From a virus: 64,000 nt of DNA. A program made the translations under genes and the position numbers. The notes under the pieces were generated by a model. It was not told the origin of the DNA. It saw nothing but the letters and a program-made list of their open reading frames with translations, and did not search any database. The stretch spans positions 32,001 through 96,000 of the IMG/VR virus record IMGVR_UViG_3300028654_000012; one strand, written 5' to 3'. This document shows positions 6,873-44,871 of this stretch, piece after piece. How positions within the stretch are numbered: position 1 is the first letter of the stretch; every line of letters begins with the position of its first letter.

Positions 6873-7126
6873 ATAGCGTCTTAAAGTACTTATCGAAAAA
6901 TTTACTTGGTAACTATAGTAATCATAGTGGCAACTATACCCTTCTACGTACGGTAATGTCTGTTGCTTATCTTATTATAATTACCTATTGCACATTGCAC
7001 GATCCGGCTACAAGAAATACTGTGATTACGGTTACAGGGGGTTTAGTAGGTACTCTCTGCGGCGTACACACTATTGGTAGTTACTTTGGAAGTAGTACGT
7101 TGCCTACCGCGACGGTCCCTGACTAA
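6869..7126 (+). CDS. Small two-TM membrane protein (holin/antiholin-like)
   Basis: Two hydrophobic segments (LLRTVMSVAYLIIITYC; VITVTGGLVGTLCGVHTIG); ATGA overlap with the DUF5675 gene. Confidence 0.5.
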   Translation: MNSVLKYLSKNLLGNYSNHSGNYTLLRTVMSVAYLIIITYCTLHDPATRNTVITVTGGLVGTLCGVHTIGSYFGSSTLPTATVPD

Positions 7127-7140
7127 GAGGATTAACATCT

Positions 7141-10100
7141 ATGAGTATAATTCCGCAGGTAGTTATAAACTTAACCGACGAGGCTATTACTCTGTTCGAC
7201 GTCAGAGCATGGAATACTAAGCCTATCGTTCTACCTCCTTTCAACACTCAGCCTGGCGGCGTTCCTGTAGATCTTTCCCTTCTTGCTCTTGATGTAGATT
7301 TAACTAAATCTTTCCATTTGAAGCATTTATATCGCACAGGAAAGATTCACGTAAACTCTACTTTCTTAGTTAGCCAGCTTCAAGCTGGTACGATGGGAAT
7401 TGATGAAGTAGCAATAATCGGAATTCCTACTGTCGGCCAAGCCCCCATCGCCACGAGCCCGACTACTGCTGTCTGGCAGAGTCTTCCGGTAACGCTTCCT
7501 CCTTCAGGACCTGCTGGCGGAGATTTATCAGGAACCTATCCTAATCCTACTGTTGTCTCCGCAGCCGGAAATTTTACAGTAGCGGCGGGACAAATTCTTA
7601 CCCCTACTATTACTTCTTTACTAGGATCTGGAACCGCTCTTTCGATTCGAGCTAATGATGGACAAGGAGGTGCTCCTGGAGGTACTCTTTCTTTAGCTAG
7701 CGGAGCTAGTTCCGGGGGTTTGCCCGTAGGATCTGGAGCTACTATTACCCTTGCAGGAGCACTAAGTCCTGCTACAATTTCGATGGTAGCTGGAAATAAT
7801 GGTTTTGGAACTACTGGAGCATCTTTCAGTCTGGCAGGAGCGGCAGGAGGAGTAGGCGGAGATGCTACTCTTACGGGTGGAACGGGTCAAGGTAACCATG
7901 GCGGCTACATTAATCTTAATACAGGTGGAGGAAGTAGCTCAGGAGCTATCCTCTTTCAGATCGCTGGAACTGAGGCTGCTAGAGTAGATGCATCAGGTTA
8001 TTTCGGTATTGGAACTACTTTACCTTCTACGGCTCTTACTGTTCAAGGAGCCACTAATTATGGCGTAATTAAAGTTCTGAGTGCAGCTCCTGGCGGTGAA
8101 GCTAGTATTGGCTTTAGGCCAATTGATGGGACTGACGGAGGCGTTAACGATTGGGTTATTGGCTCTACAGTTAACGGTAGTGGAAATAATTTTGTTTTCT
8201 GGAATCAATCTAATAACTTAATTACAATTGATCCCTCAGGCAATATGAATCTTGCCTTTGGAGGATTAACTGCGAATAGTTTAACTACTCCTACTCTGCA
8301 AGTTAATGGCTTAGAGACGATAGTTGGCTCTGACAATGGATTTCCAGGTAACGGTTTAGTAATTGTCCCTCCTAATCACACACAGACTGCTACTTATGGG
8401 TGGGGCGGAATAACAACTTCGTCTATCTTCGTCATACAGACTGGAGGGGGGCAGAATCTTTACCTCAATCCCTCATTCGCCGGCGGCTTCGTTGGCATAG
8501 GTATTGATCCCAATGTAGGATCTCCTTTAGGTCCTTTACAGGTTCGTGCGGCGGCTGATATAAATCTTTTGGTAAATGCCGCAGCTGGAGCTCTTACCCT
8601 CTCTGCTATTAACGATGTAAATAGTGCTAATGTACCTTTTGCGATTCGAGCTTCTAGTCTATCTCTCGATAATGGTGCAATTACTACTGATGGTAGTGGT
8701 AATGCTACTTTCAGAAGTGTAGCTATCAGTACTGATGGTTCTCCCATTTTTTCAGCAGGGTATGACCTCAAAATTAGAAGCACCACCTCTCTCTTAGGGA
8801 TTCACACCGATTATACGGGAGGTATCCCCACTCTAGAATTTGGTTGTGGTGATGTAGGTACTATTGCTCGAATTACTACTAATGGATCTACGAATCCTAT
8901 TGTGCTTAGTGCGGGAGGAGTTGATAGTGTATTGTTCTCTCCTGCGGGGCAAGTTGGATTATATGGAAATAATACTTCTCTAGGCGCCCTCGATATAGGA
9001 GGTAATCTTCTCATCTCTACCGCCTCGGTTATTAATCCTGCTCCAGGTAATACCGGAAGTATAAATATCTTTGCAGGTAATACCCAAGATTCTGCGGCTG
9101 TTGCAGGTAATATAAATATAGCTGCTGGTGCTGCGAATACTAATGGCGCTTCAGGCGGTAATGTCTCCATTAGCGGAGGATATTCCGTAGGAGGAGTTGT
9201 CGGAGGGCCGAGCTTAACTCTTTATGGAGCTCAAGGCAATCCAGGTACTCAAGTATCGGGTGCAGCAGCTATTAATGGCGGAACGAATGGTCAAGGAGAT
9301 GGTGGCGCAGGCATCCTTCTAAATCCGGGGAATGGATCAATCGGGGGCGGCTCCGTAAATATAAGCGCAGGAAGTTCTGCGAGTAGGCCTGGAGGAGATA
9401 TTATACTTTCTCCGGGAGTAGGTAGCACTACAGGTCACGTTCAAATTCTAGATGGCTCCCAAGGTGTAGGCAAGGTTCTAACCTCTGATGCTTCGGGTAA
9501 TGCTTCCTGGCAAGCTTCCGCAGGATTTGCGATAGGTTCGGTAATTGCTACCTACATAACGGGAGTGCAGTCCTCAGCTTTCGCCACTTTCGATGGCGTT
9601 AATATGTGGGTTAGTGGCCAAGGAAGTTCAGGTACTCTTGCAAAGATATCTCCTGATGGAGTAAGTACTGTACTCGGAGGAATAGGTTCCTATCCTTACG
9701 GACAGGTTTTTGACGGTAAGAATATATGGGTTCTGGGAAATAATGCGGAAACCATTATCAAGGTTGAACCTAATGGTACTACAACTCCTTATCCTCTTCC
9801 AATTAATAATCCTATATTTGGAGCTTTCGATGGTACTAATATTTGGGTTACCGATGGAACTAGTAATGCTGTCGTAAAAGTAGCTCCAGACGGAACTCCT
9901 ACTGCTTATACGGGAGCGGTATCTAATCCTTACGGTATAGCCTTTGATGGTCAAAATATGTGGGTGGCTAATTCGACGGATGGATCTGTTTCTAAAATAG
10001 ATCCTAGCGGGGTCATGACCAATTATCCTATCCCAGGTGTTTCTCAGTCTTACGGTATAGCCTTCGATGGTGCTAATATGTGGGTAACAAGTCCTATAGA

Positions 10101-24917: not shown

Positions 24918-25001
24918 TGCATCTTCTATTTTTAATTACTCTTGAAGTAATAGGGCTCCTTGGCTTATTAGCTTTAGTTGTCATTCTCACAATGTAAATT
25001 T

Positions 25002-25484
25002 ATGGACATATTCGACGTTCTAGATAAATATAAAGTAGACTACCAAGCGCAGGGCACGCTATACGTAGCCTATTGCCCTTTCCATGATGACGCAGGTAGA
25101 CCTAACTTCACTATATATCCTACTACGGATAGCTATTTTTGCTACGCATGTAAGAAAGGAGGGGGCCCTGTAGAATTTGTAATGGCGGCAGAGGGTAAAA
25201 CTAAAGAAGAAGCTACTCTCATAGTTCATGAAGACTTATCTTTCTTAATTAAGAAGTTAGAAGAAGAGCCTCCTACGCACCCTGTTAACGATGAGGCTAA
25301 TCTTCAATTAAGTATCCAAATTAGAGACTTCTTAAAAGATAACCCCAATAAGATATCTAAGGTACTAGGAATTTGTCGTAGGGTAGATGATACTTTAAAT
25401 AAAGGACCTCTTACCCGTGAAGAAGCCGCTGATTTAACTCAGAGGGTTACTAAAGTTTTAAGTTCGTTAAATGACAAGATGTAA
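25002..25484 (+). CDS. Stand-alone CHC2 zinc-binding domain of DnaG-type primase
   Basis: YCPFHDD..PNFTIYP...YFCYACKKGG; no TOPRIM domain follows. ATG at 25002 is the likelier start. Confidence 0.82.
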   Translation: MDIFDVLDKYKVDYQAQGTLYVAYCPFHDDAGRPNFTIYPTTDSYFCYACKKGGGPVEFVMAAEGKTKEEATLIVHEDLSFLIKKLEEEPPTHPVNDEANLQLSIQIRDFLKDNPNKISKVLGICRRVDDTLNKGPLTREEAADLTQRVTKVLSSLNDKM

Positions 25485-25516: not shown

Positions 25517-26200
25517 ATGAAAACAATTTTGATTTATAGCGGCGGACTTGACTCAACCACTTTGCTTTACCAGTTGAAAGCGCAGGGACGTGACGTTAAG
25601 GCCCTCTCTATCAACTACGGTCAGCGTCATTCAAAGGAACTAGATTTCGCTAAGAGAAACTGCGATGCGCTGGGAGTGGAGCACCGAACGGTAGATCTCT
25701 CTTCTCTTAAACCCTTACTGGGGGGAAGTTCTCAGACGGATGCTAGTGTAGCTGTTCCCGAAGGTCATTATGCCGCGGAGAACATGAAACTCACGGTAGT
25801 GCCTAATCGTAACATGCTTATGTTATCCGTAGCAGCTGCCTGGGCGATTGCGGAAAAGGCTGATACTATTGCCTACGCGGCGCACTCCGGAGATCATGCT
25901 ATCTACCCTGACTGTCGTGAAGAGTTTGTAGATGCTTTGAACAAGGCGTTAGGATTAGCTGATTGGCATACCGTTCAGATCGAGAGACCTTTTATCAACA
26001 TCTCTAAATCTGATATTGTTAAGTTGGGCAACGATCTTAAGGTACCTTTTGCAGATACTTGGAGTTGCTACAAGGGTGGAGATAAAGCCTGCGGAGTATG
26101 TGGTACGTGTTACGAGAGGCGCGAAGCTTTCGTAGAGGCCGGCGTTACGGACCCTACTCCTTATCTAGACTCTACTACTAAGTTTCAGGTCCCGGCATAA
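25517..26200 (+). CDS. queC: 7-cyano-7-deazaguanine (preQ0) synthase
   Basis: SGGLDSTT, YGQRH, VPNRN, YPDCR, TWSCY...CGVCGTC. Confidence 0.96.
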   Translation: MKTILIYSGGLDSTTLLYQLKAQGRDVKALSINYGQRHSKELDFAKRNCDALGVEHRTVDLSSLKPLLGGSSQTDASVAVPEGHYAAENMKLTVVPNRNMLMLSVAAAWAIAEKADTIAYAAHSGDHAIYPDCREEFVDALNKALGLADWHTVQIERPFINISKSDIVKLGNDLKVPFADTWSCYKGGDKACGVCGTCYERREAFVEAGVTDPTPYLDSTTKFQVPA

Positions 26201-29678: not shown

Positions 29679-30395
29679 ATGAAACTAAAAGTCAATGAAA
29701 TTTATGGGCCCGTAAAGCAGGGCGAAGGTAAATCATCTGGACTAGATGTTCTCTTCTTGAGACTATCTGGATGCAACTTAGCTTGTTCTTGGTGTGATAC
29801 TCCTTACACATGGAACTGGGTAGGTACCAAGTTCGTTCACCCGGAGAAGTTTGATCCTATGAAAGAAATCGTTTTCATGGATACTAACGAAGTTAAGGTT
29901 GAATTAGATAAGCTTAATACTAAGGCCGTAGTAATCTCTGGTGGAGAACCTATGCTCCAACAGAAGCCTCTCCTCCCCTTGATTCAGGCCCTCAAGGCCG
30001 ATAACTATTGGGTTGAGATTGAGACAAATGGTACTATAGCTCCCGAGCCCGAATTTCTTAATCTGGTAGACCAGATTAACTGCAGTCCTAAATTATCCAA
30101 TTCAGGGCCTGATAATCGTCTCTCTATGAGAGAAAGACCTGAAGCACTTACTGCTTTAGCTGATTCCCCTAAGGTCTCTTTTAAGTTTGTAGTATCCTCT
30201 GATAAGGATATGGTGGAGATTGACTCACTAATTTCTAGGTTCTCTATGAAAGAGGTTTACCTCATGCCGGAAGGTAAGACTCGGGTAGAACAATTAGCTC
30301 GCCAGGATAAGATTAAAAAGCTTTGTGAAGAAAAAGGATTCAAGTTTAGCCCCCGACTACATGTATTAGAGAATGACTCTAAACGGCGGATCTAA
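29679..30395 (+). CDS. queE: 7-carboxy-7-deazaguanine synthase (radical SAM)
   Basis: EIY..VKQGEG, FLRLSGCNLACSWCDT, ISGGEP, IETNGT, CSPKL, KFVV, LMPEG, SPRLH. Confidence 0.95.
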   Translation: MKLKVNEIYGPVKQGEGKSSGLDVLFLRLSGCNLACSWCDTPYTWNWVGTKFVHPEKFDPMKEIVFMDTNEVKVELDKLNTKAVVISGGEPMLQQKPLLPLIQALKADNYWVEIETNGTIAPEPEFLNLVDQINCSPKLSNSGPDNRLSMRERPEALTALADSPKVSFKFVVSSDKDMVEIDSLISRFSMKEVYLMPEGKTRVEQLARQDKIKKLCEEKGFKFSPRLHVLENDSKRRI

Positions 30396-30398
30396 ACT

Positions 30399-31424
30399 AT
30401 GGCTCACCTTTATCATCTTCTTACCTATCTATTTGTACTAGGCGTTGTCGTTACCCTCCATGAAATGGGCCATTATCTGGCCTGCAAATCTCAAGGAATA
30501 AGAGTAGACACCTTCTCCCTAGGCTTCGGCCCAGTACTAGCTAGCACTACTCTATGGGGAACTCTTTTTACACTCAGGCTAATACCCTTAGGGGGATTTA
30601 TTATTCCTGCTGGAGCCGGCAACCGCCCTGAAACTGCTACTGAAGGAGAGTACTTCAGTAAAGCGTGGTATAAGCGCCTTATCGTAGTATACGCAGGACC
30701 AGCTATGAACTTCGTTCTAGCCTTCCTTATCTTTGTAGGATTACTGTGGGCTAGAGGAATTCCTAGCTACACTGATGATTCTATTATAGGGCAGATGGAG
30801 AAAGGTTCCTTAGCGGACAAGGCTGGGCTACTTCCCGGTGACGAAATAATGTATGTCAACGAGGAACCTGTAGACACTTGGCATCGTATGCGGTTGGAGA
30901 TTTCTGTTTCAGGACCGGACTTAAGCCTTGTTGTTCTCCGAGGACACGCTTTAAAAACTTTTCACATTCCTTTCGGAATAGAACCTCCCCGCCTCCTAGG
31001 AATCCTGCCTCTGCAAACATACACTCCTCTAGGTTTAGTAGCCGCTAGTAAGGAAAGTGCTAGTATATGCACTTTCCAAGTCACTCAAACTTACCAAATC
31101 CTTTCAGCTAATTTAAGGCATGGTAAGAAAGCCGAGCTAGCAGGCCCTATAGGCATCTATCAAGCTGTAGCACAAGCCTCCTCAGATTGGGTAGAGACTT
31201 TTTCGCTCATGGCTATAATCTCACTATCACTAGGCATCTTTAACCTACTACCTATTCCTCTATTAGACGGAGGAACAGGAGTTCTATTCTGGTGGGAAGG
31301 ATTAACCGGAAAGTATCCCTCCACCTTAGTTGTAAATATATTCCAGCTAGTAGGCTTAGTTGTTATAGGCTTTATTCTCCTGTTCGCCACAGCAGGAGAT
31401 ATAGGCAGACTTCTAGGTCATTAA
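30399..31424 (+). CDS. rseP: Site-2 (M50) intramembrane zinc metalloprotease with PDZ, RseP-like
   Basis: HEMGH, FSLGFGP, RLIPLGGF, AGPAMN, PDZ 'GSLADKAGLLPGDEI', GPIGI, NLLPIPLLDGG. Confidence 0.92.
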   Translation: MAHLYHLLTYLFVLGVVVTLHEMGHYLACKSQGIRVDTFSLGFGPVLASTTLWGTLFTLRLIPLGGFIIPAGAGNRPETATEGEYFSKAWYKRLIVVYAGPAMNFVLAFLIFVGLLWARGIPSYTDDSIIGQMEKGSLADKAGLLPGDEIMYVNEEPVDTWHRMRLEISVSGPDLSLVVLRGHALKTFHIPFGIEPPRLLGILPLQTYTPLGLVAASKESASICTFQVTQTYQILSANLRHGKKAELAGPIGIYQAVAQASSDWVETFSLMAIISLSLGIFNLLPIPLLDGGTGVLFWWEGLTGKYPSTLVVNIFQLVGLVVIGFILLFATAGDIGRLLGH

Positions 31425-33686: not shown

Positions 33687-33866
33687 ATGGACTTCTCCAA
33701 GTGGAGATTCTTAGAGTGTGATAAAGGATGTGCACACTTGCCCACGAGTGAAGTATGCGCTAACTATTGTATGCATAATATACACTTAGATAAGTGGTGT
33801 AGAGAGTGTAGAAATCTTTGCGGTGTAGTTAACGCTAGACCAGATGATAACCAGGAGAGACTATGA
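33687..33866 (+). CDS. Small Cys-rich protein (59 aa)
   Basis: MDFSKWRFLECDKGCAH...CANYC..N...CRECRNLC; ATGA overlap with queD. Confidence 0.55.
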   Translation: MDFSKWRFLECDKGCAHLPTSEVCANYCMHNIHLDKWCRECRNLCGVVNARPDDNQERL

Positions 33867-34336
33867 TTGTATCGAAGACATTAAAGTTTGAAGCAGGACA
33901 TCGCCTAGCATTCGGCTATCCTGGTAATTGCCAGCATGCTCACGGACATAGTTACATTGTCACTGTAGTAATGGAAGCTACTACAGATGATCTTGATAAA
34001 TTCGGATTCGTAAAAGACTTCAACGATTTTAAACCCCTTAAGCAGTGGATTGACGATAAGTGGGATCATGCCTTTTTAGTAGCTCAGAATGATACTCCCA
34101 TGCTCACCTTCTTGAGAGAGAATAAGCAGAGACATTTCATCTTCGATAGCAACCCTACCGCAGAGAACATTGCCCGGGAGTTGTTTATTGTAGCTGAGGA
34201 ACTTCTAAATGATGGAGGAGCTACGGTTACTGAAGTAAGAGTAAACGAGACCGCTACATCTGAAGCCGTTTATAGATCTACTTTAGTTCAAGACGCTTTA
34301 GATGCACGGAGACTTTTAACTGCAGCTAAGGCTTAA
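33863..34336 (+). CDS. queD: 6-carboxy-5,6,7,8-tetrahydropterin synthase
   Basis: FEAGHRL, CQHAHGHSY, DFNDFK, WDHAFL, PTAENIA, VNET. Confidence 0.94.
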   Translation: MIVSKTLKFEAGHRLAFGYPGNCQHAHGHSYIVTVVMEATTDDLDKFGFVKDFNDFKPLKQWIDDKWDHAFLVAQNDTPMLTFLRENKQRHFIFDSNPTAENIARELFIVAEELLNDGGATVTEVRVNETATSEAVYRSTLVQDALDARRLLTAAKA

Positions 34337-35331: not shown

Positions 35332-35738
35332 TGGCTAAAAAGAAACGCAAGAAGATACCTGCTAGAACTATACTCCGCCGCTTACATAACAAAGCAGACA
35401 AGGCTATTAGTCTTTACGTAAGGGCCATAACCGAGATAGAATATGGCGCTTGTGCCATATGTCTAAAGAATCCTATTCAATGTTGTTTTCACTTTGTTAG
35501 AAGAGGACGTAAGGTACTACGCTGGCATTTACCTAACTTAGTAGGTACATGTCACCGATGTAATTATATAGAGTATCGTAATCCAGACATCTCTAGAGCT
35601 TGGTACATTAGACGTCATGGAGCTGATAGATACCTAGCTTTAGTAGATAGATCTATGACTAATTTTGAGCCAACCCCTGAATTTCTTCAGGGGGTTATAG
35701 ACAACTTTACTGTACAGCTAAAGAATTTGTATAAGTAA
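35331..35738 (+). CDS. NinG/Rap-like HNH endonuclease
   Basis: ADKAISLYVR..., CAIC, HF..R....LRWHLPNLVGTCHRCN, YRNP. Confidence 0.72.
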   Translation: MAKKKRKKIPARTILRRLHNKADKAISLYVRAITEIEYGACAICLKNPIQCCFHFVRRGRKVLRWHLPNLVGTCHRCNYIEYRNPDISRAWYIRRHGADRYLALVDRSMTNFEPTPEFLQGVIDNFTVQLKNLYK

Positions 35739-35739
35739 G

Positions 35740-35988
35740 ATGAAAGAAACGGAAGCTTTCTGCGTTGAGAATATTCAAAGGATACTTGCAGGCAAGAAGC
35801 CTACCTTTAAGAATAAAGTACTGGCCGAGCTCTTCAAAAGAGCCGCAGACGAAGTTATAGAGAAAGCAGGTACCAATAAAGTTACCGTAAATGGCGTAAC
35901 AATTTATAAGAAGAAATCTACCAAGCAATATATAATTCATATTCGATGGACACCTAATGACCGAAAAAAAGAACGACCTAAGTCCTGA
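35740..35988 (+). CDS. Basic hypothetical protein
   Basis: 82 aa, packed between neighbours. Confidence 0.5.
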   Translation: MKETEAFCVENIQRILAGKKPTFKNKVLAELFKRAADEVIEKAGTNKVTVNGVTIYKKKSTKQYIIHIRWTPNDRKKERPKS

Positions 35989-36418
35989 ATTTATTAGGAA
36001 CCTGCAGGCCTCTATGGAAGATCCCGCTGCCGGAACTGACTCTCCTATAGAGGCTATCCAACGACTTAGAAAAGCTGAGAATCCTACTAATATGGAAGAT
36101 CTACGTCGCCGCCTTGATGAGAACGCTGGACGCTTTTCCCCTAAGGTGGTGTTCCCTGGCGAGCAGGTTCAACCTTCCGTCCCGAAAGCTCCTCCGCCTC
36201 CTCCAGAGGAGAAAGTAACTACTCGCGTTGTTTATAAAGGACATCGGTATAATGGCGATTTCTTTTCATGTATGGCTGTAGCTTTAGTAGAACTTAATAA
36301 TCCTAAGGTAAACGAAGTCATGAGAGCCTGGGCCTTCGTTCTTAAAGACCTAGATGGAAATCAGATTTTCCCTCCTAAAACTATTTCTAGACCTCGCTCC
36401 AAAAAGAAGAAAAAGTAG
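35957..36418 (+). CDS. Hypothetical protein
   Basis: 153 aa, Pro-rich linker, basic tail. Confidence 0.55.
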   Translation: MTEKKNDLSPEFIRNLQASMEDPAAGTDSPIEAIQRLRKAENPTNMEDLRRRLDENAGRFSPKVVFPGEQVQPSVPKAPPPPPEEKVTTRVVYKGHRYNGDFFSCMAVALVELNNPKVNEVMRAWAFVLKDLDGNQIFPPKTISRPRSKKKKK

Positions 36419-36444
36419 TATAATTAAGTAGCGAGAGGTAAAGC

Positions 36445-38895
36445 ATGTCTTTTGACTTAATCCCCAACCAGAATTGTTCTCTATGTGGTCTATGTAAGAC
36501 CCGTAAGGCTATCGTCAATGGTGTAGGACCTATTACATCAAAGATTATGGTGGTTAGAGAAGGTCCTAACTTTGAAGAAGATAAGATGGGATCCCCTATG
36601 CTCGGTGAAGCCGGGAGACTCTGGCGTAATCTTCTAAAACAGGCGGGCATCGATTACAGAGATATATTCATGACTAATCTGACTAGATGTCATGGAGGAG
36701 TAGTCGATTTTAAGAAAGGTCCTAAAGATCCTTCAGCTGAAGAGATAGCTGCTTGTGCCCCTTTTCTAGACGAAGAGATTAAAAGAATCCAGCCTGTAGT
36801 TATTGTACCCGTAGGTAATATAGCTCTTAGGTATTTCTTAGGAAGTAAAGTAGCTTCTATTATGACCCATAGAGGCACAGAATTCTGGTCAGAGAAGTAC
36901 AACTGCAAAGTTATCCCCGCTATTCACCCCGCTGCCATCCTTAGAAACCCTCAATATACTTCCATCACAATTCAGGACTTAGTTAGAATCAAACAGTCTT
37001 CTACATATACAGGCCTCACACCTAAAGGTGCAGGTACATATACTATCGCAGATACTTTCGATAAGGTAGAATCTCTATTCGCAGGCCTAGAAGCTGCCAG
37101 TGAGTTGGCAATAGATATCGAGACGACCGATTTAAATCCTCTCACCAGTGATATATCTTGTATTGGATTTAGCTGGAAAGAAAAGGAAGGCTGGTGCTTA
37201 CCTATCATGAAGGCAGGTGGAAGTACTGATTCCTTTTGGGACAAAGAGTATGCTGTAGCTCTCTGGGAGAGAATTAGACGTATACTAGAAGGTCCTGCTA
37301 AGAAGATTGGACACAACTTTAAGTTCGATCAAAAATTCTTCATAATGAAGGGTATCAAGTTAAATAACTTTTATTTTGATACTATGTTAGCACATCACCT
37401 CATTGACGAGAATGCTGAGAATCTACACGGCCTAAAGGACTGTGCCTGGGCATATACTGATATGGGTGGATATGATAAGGATCTAGACGACTGGTTTAAA
37501 GCTAATAAGCAATTCAAAGGACAGTATATCCAAGTACCTTTTGCTATGCTTAACGAATACTGCGCTAAAGATGCTGATTGCACCTTTAGACTTTTTAAAG
37601 TATTTGAACCGCAGATCACTAGTATGGACCTTACCAGACTGATGAGACAGATAGTATTACCTGCGAGAGATGTCTTAATGGATGCCGAACTACTAGGTAT
37701 TCAGGCAGATAAGGACTATATTGAAAAGCTTCGTGTAGAGTATTCTACAAAGAGAAGTTCTCTAGAACAGAGTATCTTTGATTCAGTAGGTAAGCCTTTT
37801 AACATTAACTCTTCTAAGCAACTGCAAGTCATCTTATTCACCGACTTAGGGTTCGCGCCTGTAGGTAAGACAAAGGGAGGAGGATTATCTACTGATAATG
37901 CAGCCATAGATCTCATTGCTAAAGCCAACCCTAACCATCCCGTACCTAAGTTACTATTAGAATACAAAGATTGTCAGAAGATCCTTAGTACTTTTATTGA
38001 AGGGTTATCTGAACATATAGATGTAGACGGTAGAGTACATAGTAATTACAAGCAGCACGGTACTACAACCGGTAGATTATCTTCTAGCGAGCCTAACATG
38101 CAACAGATTCCTCGCGAATCTATTGTGAGAGGAATATTTGTATCACGCCCTGGATTCAAGTTGATCGAGGCAGACTTCTCCTCAGCTGAATTTAGATGGT
38201 GGGCAGAGTATAGTAGAGATCCTCAGATGGTAGAAGATCTAAGGAACGGAGTAGATATTCACAGAATGACTTATGCTCTATCTCACGGAATAGATATAGC
38301 TCTTGTGACAGATTCCCAACGTCAGCAGGCTAAGGCAACAGTATTCGGACTCATGTACGGAAGAGGTACTTGGTCGCTAGCTGAAGAGCTAGGCATTGCT
38401 GAATCTGAAGCAAAGAAAATCGTAAGTATCTTTTTTGGAAGGTATCCCCAAGCCCAAGCTTGGTTAAAGCAGCAAATCTTTGTAGCTAAAAAGACAGGTC
38501 AAGTAGTTAATTACTTTGGAAGAATTCGCAGACTTCCTGGAATTACTAGTAGTCAGGATCAGGCTAGATCTGAGGCCGAGAGACAGTGCAAGAATGCCCC
38601 AATCCAGAGTGCAGCAGCTGACATGACTATGATCGCTTCTATTAGAGTTAAAAAGGCTTTAATTAACGCAGGACTTTCAGGTAACTTAGTCATGACTGTA
38701 CACGACTCACTAGTGTATGAAGTTCCAGAAAATGAGGTAGCTTCTACATTCAGTATAGTTAAGGGTGAGGCGGAGCGGCCAGTAGCAGGAGCTATAGTTC
38801 CTATGCTTGTGGATATCAAGGTAGGCACTCGGTTAGGCTCTCTAAAGAAGGTAAAGAACGTATCAGAATTATCTTCTGAATTATGTATTAAATAA
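36445..38895 (+). CDS. polA: Family A DNA polymerase with N-terminal family-4 UDG-like domain and 3'-5' exonuclease
   Basis: UDG-like: CSLCGLC, EGP, TN..RC, HPAA. Exonuclease: DIET, HNFKFD, YCAKD. Polymerase: TTTGRLSS..PNMQQIP, ADFSSAEFR, AKATVFGLMYG, VHDS. Confidence 0.94.
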   Translation: MSFDLIPNQNCSLCGLCKTRKAIVNGVGPITSKIMVVREGPNFEEDKMGSPMLGEAGRLWRNLLKQAGIDYRDIFMTNLTRCHGGVVDFKKGPKDPSAEEIAACAPFLDEEIKRIQPVVIVPVGNIALRYFLGSKVASIMTHRGTEFWSEKYNCKVIPAIHPAAILRNPQYTSITIQDLVRIKQSSTYTGLTPKGAGTYTIADTFDKVESLFAGLEAASELAIDIETTDLNPLTSDISCIGFSWKEKEGWCLPIMKAGGSTDSFWDKEYAVALWERIRRILEGPAKKIGHNFKFDQKFFIMKGIKLNNFYFDTMLAHHLIDENAENLHGLKDCAWAYTDMGGYDKDLDDWFKANKQFKGQYIQVPFAMLNEYCAKDADCTFRLFKVFEPQITSMDLTRLMRQIVLPARDVLMDAELLGIQADKDYIEKLRVEYSTKRSSLEQSIFDSVGKPFNINSSKQLQVILFTDLGFAPVGKTKGGGLSTDNAAIDLIAKANPNHPVPKLLLEYKDCQKILSTFIEGLSEHIDVDGRVHSNYKQHGTTTGRLSSSEPNMQQIPRESIVRGIFVSRPGFKLIEADFSSAEFRWWAEYSRDPQMVEDLRNGVDIHRMTYALSHGIDIALVTDSQRQQAKATVFGLMYGRGTWSLAEELGIAESEAKKIVSIFFGRYPQAQAWLKQQIFVAKKTGQVVNYFGRIRRLPGITSSQDQARSEAERQCKNAPIQSAAADMTMIASIRVKKALINAGLSGNLVMTVHDSLVYEVPENEVASTFSIVKGEAERPVAGAIVPMLVDIKVGTRLGSLKKVKNVSELSSELCIK

Positions 38896-38896
38896 T

Positions 38897-39328
38897 ATGA
38901 GCACAACCACATTACTCGTTAAGTTAAATAGTCCTGACGCTAAAGTACCTTTTAAAGCACATCCAGATGAAGATGCTGGATTTGACTTAGTAGGTACTCA
39001 TGATGCGACAGTTAAAGCTTTTGAATCGGCTATAATCGATATCAAATTAAGTTTAGGCATTCCCAAAGGATTTTATGGCCAATTAATGACTAGATCTTCT
39101 ATGGGTAAAGCTGGCCTACGAATTCACCCAGGAGTTATCGATGCGGGGTACAGAGGCAATATCTCTGTAATAGTAATCAATCTAACTAGTAGAGACTACG
39201 AGATTCATACAGGAGATAGAGTAGCCCAGCTACTAATCTTACCTGTACCTAAGGTAAAGATAGAAGTAGTAACAGAATTACCTGAGTCAAGTAGAGGCGA
39301 AGGCGGCTTTGGAAGTACAGGAAAATAA
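38897..39328 (+). CDS. dut: Trimeric dUTPase
   Basis: AGFDL, RSS, GVIDAGYRG, RVAQL, RGEGGFGSTG. Confidence 0.95.
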   Translation: MSTTTLLVKLNSPDAKVPFKAHPDEDAGFDLVGTHDATVKAFESAIIDIKLSLGIPKGFYGQLMTRSSMGKAGLRIHPGVIDAGYRGNISVIVINLTSRDYEIHTGDRVAQLLILPVPKVKIEVVTELPESSRGEGGFGSTGK

Positions 39329-40261
39329 ATGGAGACTCTAATGGAAACAGTTAATACAGGGAGCCGGTTGGAAACAATTTCACGTAATGGTGGATTTAAG
39401 AAGTCAGCTCTCCCGGACGTACATATTACCCCTGACGAAAGAGGGATTGAGATTAATCGCGTCGGAGTAGAAGGGGTAGCAGTACCTATTGTGTTAAATA
39501 GAAAGGGTGGCGGGGAGCCTGTAAAGACTTTAGCTAAGGTAAATATGTTTGGATCCTTAGAGAAGGAATTAAAGGGAACCAATATGAGCCGATTTGCTCA
39601 ACTGTTTGTTACAGAGGATAACCATTCGGTTCTATCAGGTAATTCATTTCCCGACCTATTAGAAAGACTATCAACTAGCTTAGGAACAAAGGATGTATAC
39701 ATTTCTGCAAGCTTTGATTACTGGATGAATAAGACTACTCCTGTAAGTAAGATTTCCGCTCCTTCAGGGTATGCCTGTAGATTTATTGGACAGCTCGTAT
39801 CAGGTAAGTTGAAGTTTGTTACGGAAGTAACAGTTCCCGTAGCTTCTTACTGCCCTTGTAGTAAAGAGATGTGTCTTACAGATCCTAAGACGGGTGTAGG
39901 TCTCGGAGCTCACGCGCAGAGAGGTCTAGTAACTCTACAGGTGATCACTAACCCTCCTACTCCAGGACTATGGCTAGAGGACATGATTCGCATCGCAGAG
40001 ACATCAGGTTCAGCTGAACTATACCCTATTCTTAAGAGAGAAGATGAGAAGTACGTCACTATTGCAGGATATGATAATCCTAAGTTCGTAGAAGACATCT
40101 CTAGAGACGTAGGTAACAAGGTTCAGTTACTACCTGACGCCGTTTGGTATAAGGTTAGAACCCGCAATCTAGAATCTATTCATCCGTACGATGTAACTTC
40201 GTATGTCGGACAAATTAAGAAAGGCGATGAGTGGGTATCTGACACCCGCAGTTTCTACTAA
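39329..40261 (+). CDS. folE2: GTP cyclohydrolase I type B
   Basis: INRVGV, KGTNMSRF, YCPCSKE, AHAQR, LKREDEK, NPKFVED, ESIH. Confidence 0.93.
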   Translation: METLMETVNTGSRLETISRNGGFKKSALPDVHITPDERGIEINRVGVEGVAVPIVLNRKGGGEPVKTLAKVNMFGSLEKELKGTNMSRFAQLFVTEDNHSVLSGNSFPDLLERLSTSLGTKDVYISASFDYWMNKTTPVSKISAPSGYACRFIGQLVSGKLKFVTEVTVPVASYCPCSKEMCLTDPKTGVGLGAHAQRGLVTLQVITNPPTPGLWLEDMIRIAETSGSAELYPILKREDEKYVTIAGYDNPKFVEDISRDVGNKVQLLPDAVWYKVRTRNLESIHPYDVTSYVGQIKKGDEWVSDTRSFY

Positions 40262-40271
40262 AGAGGATACC

Positions 40272-40661
40272 ATGAGAGACGGAGAAATATATAGAGTAGT
40301 TGGCGCAAACAACGCACAGATTGAACAAGCGTTTAATCAGTTGCGTATGGAAGTAGTTACCCTTCAGGCAGCCCTTATTTCTGAGGTACTACGTACTCAA
40401 GCTATGGAAGAAGTGTTAGTAGAAGTTACGGCAGCTGCTAACCCTCCTAAAGATGCCCTTAACTTACCTGCTCCGTTAGTTGTAACAAAAGAAGCTATCG
40501 AAGCTAGGTTTAAAGCTAAACTAGAAGCTTATGAAAAGAAAATCGAAGAGCGTAAAGCAGCTCAGGCAGCAGCGAGAGAAGCAGCGGCAGCGCCAAAGAT
40601 CGTCGCTCCGACGGCTGAAGAGATGGCTAAGATCAATCAACCAGTAACACCTAATGCATAA
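40272..40661 (+). CDS. Helical hypothetical protein
   Basis: GAGG RBS before the ATG at 40272, which avoids the overlap with folE2. Confidence 0.6.
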   Translation: MRDGEIYRVVGANNAQIEQAFNQLRMEVVTLQAALISEVLRTQAMEEVLVEVTAAANPPKDALNLPAPLVVTKEAIEARFKAKLEAYEKKIEERKAAQAAAREAAAAPKIVAPTAEEMAKINQPVTPNA

Positions 40662-41208
40662 GAATCCGTACATCGTATTTGCAGGTACTCAGTCTGTAGG
40701 AAAGACTACCTTAGTTAAAGCAACTATACCTCTGCTACAGGAATTATATAACAAGCCTGTATATCATATAGCTGAAGTAGCTAGAAAGCTGAGTGCTCAA
40801 GGACATACTATCAATAGCGCCAGCAACGGTACCACCCAGCGATTAATAGAGGATGGGTATGCCGCTGAGGAAGCTGCTAATGCTGATAAAGTCTTAATAG
40901 CAGATAGAAGCGTCATAGATAGATACTCCTATACTTTATTGAGTAAGGCCGTAGAAGATGTAAGCTTAGTGCAATGGTATGAACATTTTATTCCTAGCAC
41001 GTGTGCCAAGTATAGTCATATCTTCTTCATCCCTCTGTCTGATGACGTTAAACTTGAAGTAGATGGGGTTAGATCTTCTGATGAGGATTTTAGAAAAGCT
41101 GTAGACACTACTCAGCAGATGATAATTAACAAGTTTAATATTAAAGTCACTAGATTACACGGCTCTACTGAACAACGACTTGTACAGATAAAAAAGGCTT
41201 TACAATAA
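40654..41208 (+). CDS. P-loop nucleoside monophosphate kinase-like protein (AAA_28-type)
   Basis: GTQSVGKTT, E.AR, IADRSVIDRYSY, 'DGVRSSDEDFR' lid-like segment. Confidence 0.75.
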   Translation: MHKNPYIVFAGTQSVGKTTLVKATIPLLQELYNKPVYHIAEVARKLSAQGHTINSASNGTTQRLIEDGYAAEEAANADKVLIADRSVIDRYSYTLLSKAVEDVSLVQWYEHFIPSTCAKYSHIFFIPLSDDVKLEVDGVRSSDEDFRKAVDTTQQMIINKFNIKVTRLHGSTEQRLVQIKKALQ

Positions 41209-41209
41209 T

Positions 41210-41977
41210 ATGATTATTAGCTACGAGATCCCTACACCTAATCTAAAGGACCTAGGAAAGTATAACGATTATAGTTTTTGCTTAGCTCATCTTGCTTTGC
41301 AAGATAAAGCGTATGTAGCTTACTATAAAAACGCTCCTGGATACAAAATAGTAGATAATTCTATTTTCGAATTAGACCATGCACTTCCGTACGCGGATGT
41401 TATGAAGGCAGCTGGCATCTTGCGAGCTAATGAAGTAGTATCACCAGACAGTTTTCAGAATAGTGCGAAGACTATAAAAGCAACGGAAGATTTCTTAAAA
41501 TACTTCTCTGCAGCAGGATTAGTGGGTAAGTATAAGGTAATGGGCGTTGTTCAAGGATCTAACATACCTTCATGGGTTAAGTGCTTTACGTGGATGGATA
41601 AGAACCCTTTGATTGATGTTATAGGTATCAGTTATGTGGGATGTGCTTCATTCTCTACAGAGCCTACTGATTCTAGAGTAAAAGCAGTTAAGTATGCTAT
41701 AGACCATATCAAACCTACCAAGCCTCTACATCTATTAGGCATTGGCGGAAATCCTATGGAAGTAGCTCTACAGAAGACATTCTCGCAGGTACGTAGCTGC
41801 GACACGTCTATTCCGGTAGTAGACGGCTATTACAACGTTAGATACGATATGGAGAAAGGCTCTAATATCTTACCTAAGAACAAACGTCCTTCTGATTATT
41901 TCAATTTAACTTTGAATAGCAGCCAGTTGACCGATGCAAACTTTAATATGCAATGTATGAGAAAGTGGATCACATGA
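41210..41977 (+). CDS. Divergent TGT-fold transglycosylase (DpdA-like)
   Basis: Ordered motifs IVDNS, PD, GVVQG, VIGIS, LHLLG, RSCDTS correspond to TGT/DpdA DSG, QG, G, HxLG, DS; no tRNA-TGT zinc-binding C-terminus seen. Confidence 0.68.
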   Translation: MIISYEIPTPNLKDLGKYNDYSFCLAHLALQDKAYVAYYKNAPGYKIVDNSIFELDHALPYADVMKAAGILRANEVVSPDSFQNSAKTIKATEDFLKYFSAAGLVGKYKVMGVVQGSNIPSWVKCFTWMDKNPLIDVIGISYVGCASFSTEPTDSRVKAVKYAIDHIKPTKPLHLLGIGGNPMEVALQKTFSQVRSCDTSIPVVDGYYNVRYDMEKGSNILPKNKRPSDYFNLTLNSSQLTDANFNMQCMRKWIT

Positions 41978-42609
41978 GTTACTTTAAACAACGGGGATTA
42001 ACAGACCAGACCGTTAAGACGTTTAATCTAGGATATTGTGATACTTCCGGTTATGTAACAGTACCGGAAGTTTCTTCTTTTATAGATAGGCGGTTCTATC
42101 ACAGTGCCCTGTTCCCTATATACAATTTATATAACGTCCCTATATCTGTGTCGGCGAGACCTTTATCCCCGGGATCTCCTTTTAAGTATGTCCATACACA
42201 TTATGATAAGGCCCACCACATGTACGGGCTCAATGTAACCTGGCCGGATATCCTTAAAGCTCGAAAAGCGTATATAGTAGAGGGTAACTTTGACCTCCTG
42301 ACCTTGTATCAATATGGTATTACAAACACCGTAGCAATGTTAGGGTCTCAATTTTCTCCTACGCAACTTTGTCTATTAACAAGATTTTGTGATGAAATTG
42401 TTATAGCCACGGACGGAGATGAGCCCGGGATTAAGTGCGCAAGTAAAATTATGAAGTTATGTCAATCAAGAGGCATTAAAAGTTCATTATTAAAACTACC
42501 TCCTAACATGGACCCGGATAATTTTGTTAAGACCTATGGGGCATCCGCTTTCTTAAAATTAGCCCCGAAGACATTATCAGAGATGTTACAAGGAGGTTCA
42601 AGTGCGTAA
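41974..42609 (+). CDS. DnaG-type primase catalytic core (TOPRIM) lacking the zinc-binding domain
   Basis: Starts MSYFKQRGLT...FNLGY; KY.H, YIVEGNFD, ATDGDEPG, MDPD; ATGA overlap start at 41974. Confidence 0.87.
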   Translation: MSYFKQRGLTDQTVKTFNLGYCDTSGYVTVPEVSSFIDRRFYHSALFPIYNLYNVPISVSARPLSPGSPFKYVHTHYDKAHHMYGLNVTWPDILKARKAYIVEGNFDLLTLYQYGITNTVAMLGSQFSPTQLCLLTRFCDEIVIATDGDEPGIKCASKIMKLCQSRGIKSSLLKLPPNMDPDNFVKTYGASAFLKLAPKTLSEMLQGGSSA

Positions 42610-42627
42610 TTTATTCCAAGAATAACA

Positions 42628-43233
42628 ATGAACGATATCGCAGTCACGGACAGCTTAGGATTACCGAGAGTAAAAAGATGGTATACGTTAAAGACAAATG
42701 GCATAGCTAATATTCGATCAATTAATGCGTGCCTCAAAGTAGCGCCTGAAGTACCTAATTTTTGGATGGCGGGATATATGGTTCCCCGCAAGATTAGAAA
42801 AACCACTACCCTTAAGAAAGATTTTTTCTACTACGATTACGCATTCCTCGAATTAGAAGATGCAATGACATTCGAGAAGTTCTTATCAGATCGCCACATC
42901 CCCGCCTACTTCCTTCACCACGTTGGAACTAAAATCCCTCAAGCTTTAACTGAACAAGAGATTTCAGATATTAAGCAATTAGAGATTTTAAAGCAACTTG
43001 AAGTCGAAGCATTTAAGACCCCTCTATTAAGATCCGGAGCTTACATTGAAGTAACTCACGGACCCTTTATTGGGTGTAAAGGGATAGTCAAAGAGATTAC
43101 AGGATCGTATGCAGTGCTTGAAATGAATGTTTTTGAGAGACCCACATCGGTTAGAGTAGAGCTAGAGTTCCTAAAAGACCTACTTCAGTCATGTGAGCCC
43201 GTAGCAGAATGTGTAGATGAAGACACCGAATAA
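42628..43233 (+). CDS. NusG-family transcription elongation/antitermination factor
   Basis: NGN-like 'WYTLKT...FFYYDYAFLEL' plus KOW 'GAYIEVTHGPFIGCKGIVKEI...VLEMNVFERPTSVRVE'. Confidence 0.78.
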   Translation: MNDIAVTDSLGLPRVKRWYTLKTNGIANIRSINACLKVAPEVPNFWMAGYMVPRKIRKTTTLKKDFFYYDYAFLELEDAMTFEKFLSDRHIPAYFLHHVGTKIPQALTEQEISDIKQLEILKQLEVEAFKTPLLRSGAYIEVTHGPFIGCKGIVKEITGSYAVLEMNVFERPTSVRVELEFLKDLLQSCEPVAECVDEDTE

Positions 43234-43612
43234 TAAATCTTTCCGTGGACAGACCGATGTCAACACCGATAGGTTCATTTTTCGCATACAGCGAGAAATA
43301 CCTATTGAAGACGTCGAATTAGAGAAGTTAGTAAATGATAATCAGACAGCGATCGCGCAGACTCAGACGGACGAAGAACGACTAACTGAGCGACAAGAGT
43401 TTCAAGAAAAGCGTAAAGAGTTAGTCGAAAAGTTGTTTGCCGCGGCGACTAAGGTACTCACAGACATACAGTTTCAAATATTTACTTCCTATTTTGTAAT
43501 GGGAATGAGCGAGCCCCAGATAGCGTCTTCTATGAACGTAACGCAGCCTTACATAAGTATTGTGTTAACGGCGTCGATCAAAAAGATCAAAAAAGAACTC
43601 AAGATCGACTAA
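43217..43612 (+). CDS. Sigma70 region-4-like HTH protein
   Basis: LTDIQFQIFTSYFVMGMSEPQIASSMNVTQPYISIVLTASIKKIKK. Confidence 0.72.
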   Translation: MKTPNNKSFRGQTDVNTDRFIFRIQREIPIEDVELEKLVNDNQTAIAQTQTDEERLTERQEFQEKRKELVEKLFAAATKVLTDIQFQIFTSYFVMGMSEPQIASSMNVTQPYISIVLTASIKKIKKELKID

Positions 43613-43619
43613 CGACCAA

Positions 43620-43658
43620 TTGTCGTACCCGTTATCCCTCTGTTATATATAATATAAT
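43620..43658 (+). promoter_or_regulatory. Sigma70-like promoter (TTGTCG-18 nt-TATATA, TGn extension, tandem TATAAT)
   Basis: ttgtcg tacccgttatccctctgt tatataatataat, upstream of 43690. Confidence 0.45.
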
Positions 43659-43689
43659 AGCAATTTAACTTAGTAACCGGGGCCTAATA

Positions 43690-44871
43690 ATGTCTGCGAC
43701 AATATATGTAAAAGACGATGGGGATTATTTTTTAACAGCTGCCCAATACTCCCTATTTAAAACCTATTCAGATTTGGCAGTTAATTGGGTTAAGGTAGCC
43801 GAAGATAACGTTGATCTAACTCCTGAACAGCAAAAGGAGTACAACGATAATATAGCTAAAGCCGTTGGATGGGCTAAGAGCTTAAAGTTTAAACCCGAAA
43901 TGGGTATAGACCCCTCCTCATTCGCACACACAATTCTTCTTCACGCAGTAAAGACTTACGATGGAGCTAAAGGTACAGCATTCTCAACATGGCTCTACAG
44001 AATTATGCAGCAGCAAGCTGCCACACTTTGGAACAAGTATACTAAGTATTTAGAAGACACCTCAGGCGGAGAAAGATCGTTAGCCGAACCAGTATCAATG
44101 CCTGGAGGAGAAGAAGTAGAACTAGAGCAGTTACTTGAAGGTGTAGAGCAGTTAAGAGTACAAGACGATCCCGCCTATAATATCCTCCGCAGTCAACTTA
44201 AAGACCTCCTCGGCCAAGCCGATCCCTCAGGCAGACTTTTCCGCATCTACCGTATGTTAGTAGAGGAAGGTCTCTCAAACCCCCAAGTAGCCTCCGCTGA
44301 AAATCTTTCACCCTCTCGAGTTACGGGACTGGTTAAGAAAATTCAAGAAGTTCTAAAGAACCACGGAGACATTAAAGAGCTATTGGAGAATGGAGGATCT
44401 ACAGAAGAAAATAAAACTTCTGCAATTCGCCGGTTTATCTTTAGAGAAGGAGACCACGTCAACGTAATGTCTCTGGATAAACCTGGAGTAATTATTAAAG
44501 CTTATAAGGGAAATGTATTTGAAGTAAGATTAGATTACAATAACAATATTACTCGTACAGCCCGGCACGATCTAGAAAAGTATTCCACGGTAACTGATTC
44601 TGTAATTAAAGCCTCAAAGCATTTCTTCGGGTTGAGTATCCGAACTCCCCGTTGCTACGCTGCTCGCGTTAATAATAACGATAAATCTGTAATAGCTGTT
44701 CTTGAATTTAGACCCACATCTGAAATTACTACCCTAGCCAGTCTATACATGGGAAATACTATTGCGGGCAGTGTTGAGATTTCTGAAGGATCACTAACAA
44801 ACTTAGTTGATCTCGTTAAGATAAAAATGGGTACAGATGCTAAATTAGACCCCGAGTTTCTATCACTTTAA
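43690..44871 (+). CDS. Sigma-factor-like protein fused to a C-terminal SH3/KOW-like domain
   Basis: Region-2-like 'KTYDGAKGTAFSTWLYRIMQQQ', region-4-like 'GLSNPQVASAENLSPSRVTGLVKKI', then 'FREGDHVNV...PGVII'. Confidence 0.62.
   Translation: MSATIYVKDDGDYFLTAAQYSLFKTYSDLAVNWVKVAEDNVDLTPEQQKEYNDNIAKAVGWAKSLKFKPEMGIDPSSFAHTILLHAVKTYDGAKGTAFSTWLYRIMQQQAATLWNKYTKYLEDTSGGERSLAEPVSMPGGEEVELEQLLEGVEQLRVQDDPAYNILRSQLKDLLGQADPSGRLFRIYRMLVEEGLSNPQVASAENLSPSRVTGLVKKIQEVLKNHGDIKELLENGGSTEENKTSAIRRFIFREGDHVNVMSLDKPGVIIKAYKGNVFEVRLDYNNNITRTARHDLEKYSTVTDSVIKASKHFFGLSIRTPRCYAARVNNNDKSVIAVLEFRPTSEITTLASLYMGNTIAGSVEISEGSLTNLVDLVKIKMGTDAKLDPEFLSL

Follow-up and report, generated by a model that had tools for sequence, protein, structure and literature searches.

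A kinase gene coupled to DpdA3 in an uncultured phage: a possible pre-replicative route to 7-deazaguanine in DNA

How do some phages come to carry a 7-deazaguanine in place of every guanine (G) of their DNA? Two answers have been opposed to each other, a route through modified dGTP and the action of DpdA3, a transglycosylase that was never reconstituted. The question is raised anew by two genes in a 64,000-nucleotide stretch of viral DNA (positions 32,001 to 96,000 of IMG/VR record IMGVR_UViG_3300028654_000012; hereafter, the window), where a small P-loop nucleoside/nucleotide kinase of 184 amino acids (40654..41208, plus strand) is followed by a 255-amino-acid protein with the TIM barrel of the tRNA-guanine transglycosylases (TGT), a member of the DpdA3 subfamily of 7-deazaguanine transglycosylases (41210..41977, plus strand). 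The source phage is uncultured and known from 2019 rhizosphere metagenome contigs, and its 116.7-kb record is estimated to be 56% complete. A preliminary description of the window had proposed that the two genes form a pair dedicated to base exchange before replication. The pair exists as described, both genes being on the plus strand and 1 nt apart, with the TAA stop of the kinase at 41206-41208, a single spacer base, and the ATG of the TGT-fold gene at 41210. In this work we suggest, with a probability of about 0.5, that DpdA3 would exchange the base on a free nucleotide and that the adjacent kinase would then act on the product (i.e., a pre-replicative route), an idea with much more behind it than one gene neighbourhood taken alone would give.

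What is the downstream gene? The preliminary description took it for a divergent TGT; tblastn and profile scores place it not in a new clade but in the published DpdA3 subfamily. The match to the Pfam TGT family (PF01702) stays below threshold (17.2 bits, cut-off 26.3) and is partial, covering residues 80-186. The AlphaFold2 model of the protein, with a predicted local distance difference test (pLDDT) score of 96 and a predicted template modelling (TM) score of 0.92, matches tRNA-guanine transglycosylases in Foldseek with probability 1.0 and a TM score of about 0.65, and a VIA comparison with TGT gives Z 17.8 and a root mean square deviation of 3.1 Å over 229 residues. No relative was found when a DpdA3 profile was run against the sequences of the PDB, TGT being recovered by the fold search only. 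Among phage genomes, the tblastn matches are CGPG_00065 of Cellulophaga phage phiST, gp056 of Campylobacter phage CP220 and the ‘DNA guanine transglycosylase’ of Flavobacterium phage immuto, gp206 (E 1e-18, 3e-19 and 4e-12; 83-98% of the length, 26-32% identity), which are the founding members of DpdA3 (Cui, Hutinet et al., NAR 2023, PMC10516641). The protein also scores 274 bits on a DpdA3 profile, has no match on a DpdA1 profile, and matches phrog_19058 at 2.4e-19. DpdA3 and DpdA1 themselves are barely comparable, as hhalign gives them a probability of 9% and aligns the catalytic stretch alone. The family is very large, with 5,220 cluster representatives at 50% identity (E <= 0.001), and more than 546 IMG/VR contigs fall in one aquatic clade alone.

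The residues expected of a transglycosylase are in place. D49, F53, D80, Q115-G116 and D198 are invariant in an alignment of 38 family sequences, and D49, D80, H174-x-L-G177 (H174-L-L-G177 in the window protein) and S196-x-D198 remain so even across seven very distant members. The catalytic residues correspond to Asp95, Phe99, Asp130 and Asp256 of the bacterial DpdA (bDpdA), the roles of which were defined experimentally (PMC10164549). We propose that D49 could serve as general acid/base, F53 could stack on the base, D80 and Q115 could bind it, and D198 could be the nucleophile. Two motifs that had been singled out as atypical, V-D-N-S (48-51) and R-S-C-D-T-S (195-200), are real, but they are common to the whole DpdA3 subfamily and mark nothing peculiar to this protein. 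The zinc-binding tail is indeed missing, with no CxCxxC in the window protein nor in any of 96 DpdA3 sequences; the argument built on this, that the protein should not bind nucleic acid, fails nonetheless, since the DNA-acting DpdA1 is without CxCxxC as well. Net charge and isoelectric point (pI) were rejected as signs against DNA binding along with the zinc motif, DpdA1 being equally acidic (pI 5.2-6.5); the window DpdA3 is basic (pI 8.6), and most DpdA3 proteins are acidic like DpdA1. A word-based search of longer proteins found no DpdA3 fused to another domain, and the long forms among the best 150 of the 5,220 HMMER representatives gave no Walker A, kinase-profile or pyrophosphatase-profile match. 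These long forms comprise two DpdA3-DpdN fusions, one with a NUMOD3 motif, as well as several proteins whose extensions have no explanation; in P0091 and P0180 (447 amino acids each), an N-terminal DpdA3 is joined to a C-terminal DpdN formyltransferase (1e-57 to 1e-60 on the DpdN profile).

Is the kinase beside DpdA3 a peculiarity of one genome? The preliminary description had suggested a survey of gene neighbourhoods, and the linkage turns out to be conserved across lineages. We sampled 96 DpdA3 loci (90 from IMG/VR and six from isolate phages), called their open reading frames (ORFs), and labelled the neighbours up to 4 kb away with profiles for which Pfam-classified proteins were the seeds; as control, we fetched identically 17 loci of phage 9g relatives, which carry the DNA-acting DpdA1. 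A small nucleotide kinase lies within this distance of DpdA3 in 88 loci and of DpdA1 in none, and the 17 control loci hold no dNTPase, QueF, DpdN, DUF5664 or GMP reductase either. The eight loci without a kinase are three truncated contigs, one with a different arrangement (L071), and four that belong to a divergent branch (L013-L016). On the DpdA3 tree, the kinase is found in five of about seven deep lineages. The published DpdA3 phages phiST, CP220 and immuto have the kinase neighbour too; the paper defining DpdA3 makes no mention of it (PMC10516641), and the literature searched gave no paper linking DpdA3 to a kinase or to exchange at the nucleotide level.

The proteins occupying this position are not of one kind. 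An AAA_28 kinase is found in the window clade, CP220, immuto and the aquatic clade, an AAA_18 kinase with an SGKD loop in phiST and Chryseobacterium phage MA9V-3, a T4 gp1-type deoxynucleoside monophosphate (dNMP) kinase (PF21448) in the T4-like Aeromonas phage Ahp1, and another P-loop protein in Bacillus BSP7-type phages. Four unrelated kinase types filling one slot indicate that the activity is what is conserved, not one partner protein. Ahp1 has its canonical gp1 (168 bits) at about 210.7 kb of its record (210755-211375) and, between DpdA3 and a DCD/dUTPase-fold gene, an extra divergent gp1 paralogue (6855-7424 of locus L006). Moreover, the kinase is kept whatever the side chain of the base (preQ0, preQ1, formyl-preQ1, ADG or DG), an indication that its role concerns the sugar and phosphate of the molecule. 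As an observation in its own right, gp055 of CP220 (4868-5899 of L001), directly upstream of DpdA3, is an HD phosphohydrolase fused to an AAA_33 P-loop kinase domain, and the DpdA3 of this phage is thus flanked by kinase-type domains on both sides.

The kinase abutting DpdA3 is alone among the small ORFs of the window in having a Walker A at its N terminus. It matches Pfam AAA_28 (PF13521) over profile positions 2-164 of 164 (E 1.2e-15; 58.5 bits, cut-off 27) and carries, besides the Walker A, a D-R-S motif (D84-R85) and an Arg-rich LID; 18 homologues keep G11, G16, K17, T19, D84, R85, D137, R140 and R147 without exception. It had been called similar to nucleoside monophosphate kinases, and a small P-loop kinase it is, but its nearest solved relative by sequence is the nucleoside kinase NadR (ribosylnicotinamide kinase domain; 1lw7, E 3e-5), followed by dTMP kinases, and the fold of its AlphaFold2 model (pLDDT 90) lies between NadR (6gyf, TM 0.73) and the dTMP kinases (TM 0.64-0.69; 5xai 0.69). 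The protein is, to judge by its sequence, a small nucleoside/nucleotide kinase whose acceptor may be a 5′-OH or a 5′-phosphate, the sequence not deciding between the two. The label ‘thymidylate kinase’ that comes with its match to phrog_2107 (7.6e-17) was discarded as unsupported, the score on the NCBIfam dTMP kinase equivalog TIGR00041 (19.3 bits) being far under the cut-off of 83.25.

If the kinase serves a modified nucleotide, what provides the acceptor? Other genes in the DpdA3 cassettes are of importance here. The phages of the aquatic clade are T4-like (Gp23 capsid, baseplate hub), and their DpdA3-(DpdN)-kinase-QueF genes form a same-strand cassette lying mostly between structural genes of the opposite strand. 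In 36 loci, a stand-alone PF18909 (DUF5664) gene of 115-155 amino acids stands between DpdA3 and the kinase (E 1e-20 to 1e-22), and experiments with a stand-alone DUF5664 protein have established that it turns each of dATP, dUTP and dGTP into its dNMP (PMC12884076). Twelve aquatic-clade loci have an IMPDH/GMP-reductase-family gene in the cassette, and the sole representative scanned, between DpdN and DUF5664 (L066:5387-6346), scores 338 bits against a GMP reductase cut-off of 344. DpdA3 is also flanked by MazG in phiST, by PRA-PH in immuto and by the HD-P-loop fusion in CP220, and Dut/DCD-fold genes adjoin it in MA9V-3, Ahp1, L014 and the window clade. Conversion of dGTP to dGMP, or removal of GMP, by such enzymes fits a scheme where G is kept out of the replicating DNA and dGMP is the substrate, whereas lowering dGTP would be counter-productive if this nucleotide had to be incorporated first and exchanged afterwards. 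One cassette of the 96 loci also holds, among DpdA3, DpdN, DUF5664 and the kinase, a 527-amino-acid flavoenzyme of the tryptophan-halogenase family (L046:4807-6390; Pfam E 2e-75), which could catalyse an undescribed tailoring step on a 7-deazaguanine.

The base itself can be supplied by the phage. The window encodes a 7-deazaguanine synthesis set, all on the plus strand, made of a FolE2-type GTP cyclohydrolase I for the first preQ0 step (39329..40261; Pfam GCHY-1, E 4.6e-69), the 6-carboxytetrahydropterin synthase QueD (33863..34336; Pfam PTPS, 7.6e-28), a QueE-like radical SAM enzyme, 7-carboxy-7-deazaguanine synthase (29679..30395; Pfam Radical_SAM / Fer4_12, QueE profile 4.6e-87), and the 7-cyano-7-deazaguanine synthase QueC (25517..26200; Pfam QueC, 2.8e-67). 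Profile searches found neither QueF nor DpdN in the record, with the caveat of its incompleteness, so that preQ0 is predicted as the base and the phage probably replaces G in its DNA with dPreQ0, to an extent that may be complete; DpdA3 phages are the only ones of any DpdA type with 100% G replacement (PMC10516641). The kinase is best explained as a dedicated partner of DpdA3, the two forming the part of the pathway that brings preQ0, for which the synthesis genes are complete, into the DNA. Outside the window, on the minus strand of the same record (G000, 107577-108638; L127:10577-11638), lies a gene for a 353-amino-acid IMPDH/GMP-reductase-domain protein without CBS insert (Pfam 2e-127). As an equivalent of the cassette GMP reductase it was dropped, since by NCBIfam it is closer to an IMP dehydrogenase without CBS; more guanine nucleotides for preQ0 synthesis may be the benefit of having it.

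How could such a pathway work? The substrate of DpdA3 would be a deoxyguanosine nucleotide in free form, with dGMP as the likeliest and a variant at the nucleoside level as a possibility. Attack of Asp198 on C1′ would displace guanine and leave a covalent deoxyribosyl-5-phosphate enzyme, with Asp49 as general acid/base, and N9 of preQ0 would resolve this intermediate into dPreQ0-MP. The adjacent kinase would phosphorylate dPreQ0-MP, a dedicated enzyme being needed because the guanylate kinase of the host is unlikely to accept a 7-substituted analogue; host NDP kinase would make the triphosphate, and the phage DNA polymerase PolA would incorporate it during replication. Salvage of the released guanine could yield GTP for FolE2 to use again. 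DpdA3 would thus be the first TGT-fold enzyme to work on a free nucleotide, swapping guanine for 7-deazaguanine on dGMP as a deoxyribose-5-phosphate (or deoxyribosyl) transferase, and would form a pre-replicative pathway together with the kinase and, often, a DUF5664/MazG-type dGTP pyrophosphohydrolase, a proposal to which we give about an even chance. Parts of it have precedents. DmtZ, supplied by DutZ or DUF5664, takes the deoxyribose-5-phosphate of dAMP and transfers it to base Z (NAR 2026, PMC12884076), which makes pre-replicative base exchange on a free dNMP established phage chemistry, but with an NDT-fold enzyme; MazZ supplies dGMP to PurZ in S-2L (PMC8342488). For Campylobacter phages, a route through modified dGTP was put forward in 2019 (cited in PMC6884629) and set aside in 2023 once DpdA3 was found (PMC10516641), and an ADG nucleoside was seen in infected cells (PMC10516641).

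Several facts weigh against exchange on the free nucleotide. No TGT-fold enzyme is known to use such a substrate, all the characterised members of the superfamily (TGT, ArcTGT and bDpdA) acting on a polynucleotide (PMC10164549), as phage DpdA1 and DpdA2 are reported to do (PMC10516641), and the authors who defined DpdA3 propose post-replicative insertion (PMC10516641). A single large aquatic clade accounts for most of the 96 loci, which brings the independent observations down from 96 to about seven. Complete modification after replication is possible in principle, as phage T4 glucosylates every hydroxymethylcytosine. Besides, the four loci of the divergent branch have no kinase within 4 kb, and two of its genomes, 99-100% complete, encode no small nucleotide kinase at all, from which it follows that a phage kinase is not universally required; by profile score (62-123 bits) and by its DNG/DNS, HLLG and SCDT motifs, this branch is still DpdA3. 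In the window clade no dedicated enzyme was seen for the dGTP-hydrolysing step; MazG (PF03819), HD (PF01966) and DUF5664 (PF18909) are all absent from the 116.7-kb, 56% complete record, and a complete 210-kb relative (G005) has no MazG, DUF5664 or HD dNTPase, its sole HD protein being a CCA-adding enzyme. In the conserved block, Dut alone was recognised as a dNTP pyrophosphatase; the relative too has a single Dut gene, within its DpdA3 block, and Dut is a candidate for the dNMP-making role. The window Dut, though, clears the cut-offs of the NCBIfam dut model (124.8 bits, 102.55 being required) and looks canonical; Dut-fold enzymes can acquire dATP/dGTP activity, as DutZ did (PMC12884076).

Several of these facts speak for a post-replicative mechanism, where DpdA3 would exchange G for preQ0 on polymeric DNA, perhaps just behind the fork, and the kinase would serve nucleotide supply or recycling, either by rephosphorylating dNMPs from degraded host DNA or, as a GMP kinase, by returning released guanine to GTP for preQ0 synthesis. 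Recycling of guanine would demand a guanylate kinase, and immuto is among several phages with a phosphoribosyltransferase gene not far from DpdA3; DpdA3 also has the catalytic residues of the DNA-acting bDpdA. The replication genes are close as well. PolA follows or overlaps DpdA3 directly in L002, L013, L015 and L016; in the divergent branch the two genes abut or overlap in three of the four loci and have a Dut gene between them in the fourth, and in the window the end of DpdA3 overlaps the DnaG core by 25 nt. The sequences thus suggest an association of DpdA3 with PolA; the polymerases at L013:4752-7220 and L015:4720-7092 are, judging from their N-terminal sequences, apparently of UDG-PolA-like architecture. 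Yet insertion after replication leaves unexplained the three-gene island of kinase and DpdA3 in T4-like phages, the second, divergent gp1 of Ahp1, and the presence in the cassette of a dGTP-hydrolysing DUF5664 and a GMP reductase, both of which lower the dGTP that replication needs. It does not account for the lack of all these genes at the 17 loci of DpdA1, which does act on DNA, nor for the absence of modification when DpdA3 alone was expressed in the E. coli model of its discoverers (PMC10516641). We regard this mechanism as possible rather than probable.

That failure in E. coli, where DpdA3 was without its neighbours, would also be expected if the P-loop protein were an ATP-hydrolysing helper of DpdA3 on DNA and not a metabolic kinase. 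In bacteria, DpdA does not exchange guanine on DNA unless DpdB hydrolyses ATP (PMC10164549), and in the window the two genes are tightly coupled, with a spacer of 1 nt. DpdB, however, is ParB-like, whereas the protein here has the small-kinase fold of TMPK, NadR-RNK and gp1, with LID and DR motif; the interchange of four unrelated kinase families is hard to square with a specific protein partnership, and the kinase is often two to four genes away from DpdA3. A helper of this sort seems to us quite unlikely. Less likely still is a coincidence, by which an ordinary dTMP/dNMP kinase of the replication module would stand beside DpdA3 with no meaning. The annotators' label and the position of the window pair in a replication block favour this, as does the occurrence of AAA_28 kinases in the replication modules of Streptomyces phages without DpdA3, which also tells against a kinase dedicated to base exchange. 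A chance neighbourhood would hardly give 88 of 96 loci against none of 17, nor recur in five deep lineages with differing gene orders and kinase families; the cassette of T4-like phages lies among structural genes and not in a replication module, and the dTMP kinase model is missed by a wide margin. Base exchange on the free nucleotide followed by phosphorylation remains our preferred interpretation.

The genes around the pair are those named in the preliminary description, FolE2, dUTPase, PolA and the DnaG core all being borne out by Pfam. On the plus strand, the 816-amino-acid family A polymerase PolA (36445..38895), with an N-terminal UDG-superfamily domain and a 3′-5′ exonuclease, is followed by a trimeric dUTPase-fold pyrophosphatase (38897..39328; Pfam dUTPase, 6.9e-32), FolE2, the kinase, DpdA3 and a 218-amino-acid DnaG catalytic TOPRIM core without zinc ribbon (41953..42609). 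This order, PolA-Dut-FolE2-kinase-DpdA3-DnaG core, is kept in the window clade, where PolA shares the block throughout, FolE2 holds its position in seven of seven loci, and the DnaG core is directly 3′ of DpdA3 in six of the seven relatives, the seventh locus (L009) ending earlier. Between FolE2 and the kinase lies an ORF of 152 amino acids (40203..40661, plus strand) without Pfam or PHROG match or assigned function, the stop of which is overlapped by the ATG of the kinase; its homologue is found only in the closest relative (L007), the other members having a different ORF or none there, and it is poorly conserved and probably not a core part of the block. Promoter-like and terminator-like sites are no commoner in 35700-43800 than in shuffled sequence, which is consistent with a single transcription unit from PolA to the primase core, and among 50,697 phage records blastn found nothing that matches the region.

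Some features of this part of the genome deserve mention for their own sake. The DnaG primase appears to be split, with a CHC2 zinc-ribbon protein of 168 amino acids (24978-25484) about 16 kb upstream of the separate TOPRIM core (41953-42609), and the UDG domain of PolA (Pfam UDG, 3.9e-24) precedes the exonuclease and polymerase. QueE is separated from an SbcC-like ATPase by a site-2-protease-type peptidase M50 with a PDZ domain (30399-31424; Pfam 3.5e-49), a gene not usually met in the replication region of a phage. Directly downstream of the replication/modification block (42628-44871) come a KOW/NusG-like gene (phrog ‘transcription antiterminator’) and two sigma-factor-like genes.

If the proposed interpretation is correct, a second and unrelated fold would join the newly discovered class of enzymes that swap the base of a dNMP, the failed reconstitution in E. 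coli would be accounted for, and the annotation of the very large DpdA3 family would have to be revised. Moreover, 7-substituted 7-deaza-dGTPs, which have their uses as reagents, could then be made with enzymes. Should the nucleotide-level route fail, the linkage of the kinase would still need an explanation.

In spite of the distance between them, the window protein resembles the DpdA3 of phiST, CP220 and immuto in length (about 255-270 amino acids), in the absence of a zinc motif, in the association with FolE, QueD and QueE (and QueC), and in the invariant D-N-S/G, P-D, Q-G, H-L-L-G and S-C-D-T/S motifs. It differs from them in belonging to a separate clade, with 45-51% identity to its nearest non-trivial relatives, and its phage uses FolE2 instead of FolE and has a full QueC. 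In the pre-replicative pathway of T4, gp56 is a dCTPase, gp42 a dCMP hydroxymethylase, and gp1 a dNMP kinase that accepts the modified dNMP. The likeness to this triad lies in the combination of a pool-clearing dNTPase, a dNMP-modifying enzyme and a phage dNMP kinase, the gp1-type paralogue of Ahp1 standing right beside DpdA3; the differences are that T4 hydroxymethylates C5 of the base in place, without exchange, and that the window kinase is of AAA_28 type and is seen without a dedicated dGTPase.

The closest parallel in chemistry is the DutZ/DUF5664 and DmtZ route of the PurZ0 Z-genome phages (PMC12884076), with the same succession as proposed here, from dNTP to dNMP, through a base swap on the free dNMP, to rephosphorylation and incorporation. 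DmtZ swaps the base through a covalent deoxyribosyl-5-phosphate enzyme, as we propose for DpdA3, but it has the NDT fold, a Glu nucleophile, and dAMP and base Z as substrates, whilst DpdA3 has a TGT TIM barrel and an Asp as its likely nucleophile and would handle 7-deazaguanines; DUF5664 is shared with 36 DpdA3 cassettes, none of them in the window clade. DpdA1 (gp03 of Enterobacteria phage 9g) and the bacterial DpdA/DpdB system have in common with DpdA3 the superfamily fold, the catalytic aspartates, nearby preQ0 genes and an anti-restriction purpose. Unlike DpdA3, DpdA1 gives partial replacement (up to about 30%), acts on DNA, and is barely alignable, and bDpdA depends on the ParB-like ATPase DpdB (PMC10164549). 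The best structural matches, finally, are the TGT of Z. mobilis and the ArcTGT of P. horikoshii; the window protein keeps the equivalents of their Asp102, Asp156, Gln203 and Asp280, but with 10-15% identity to them it is about 100 residues shorter and has neither the zinc CxCxxC...H site nor the N-terminal sheet.

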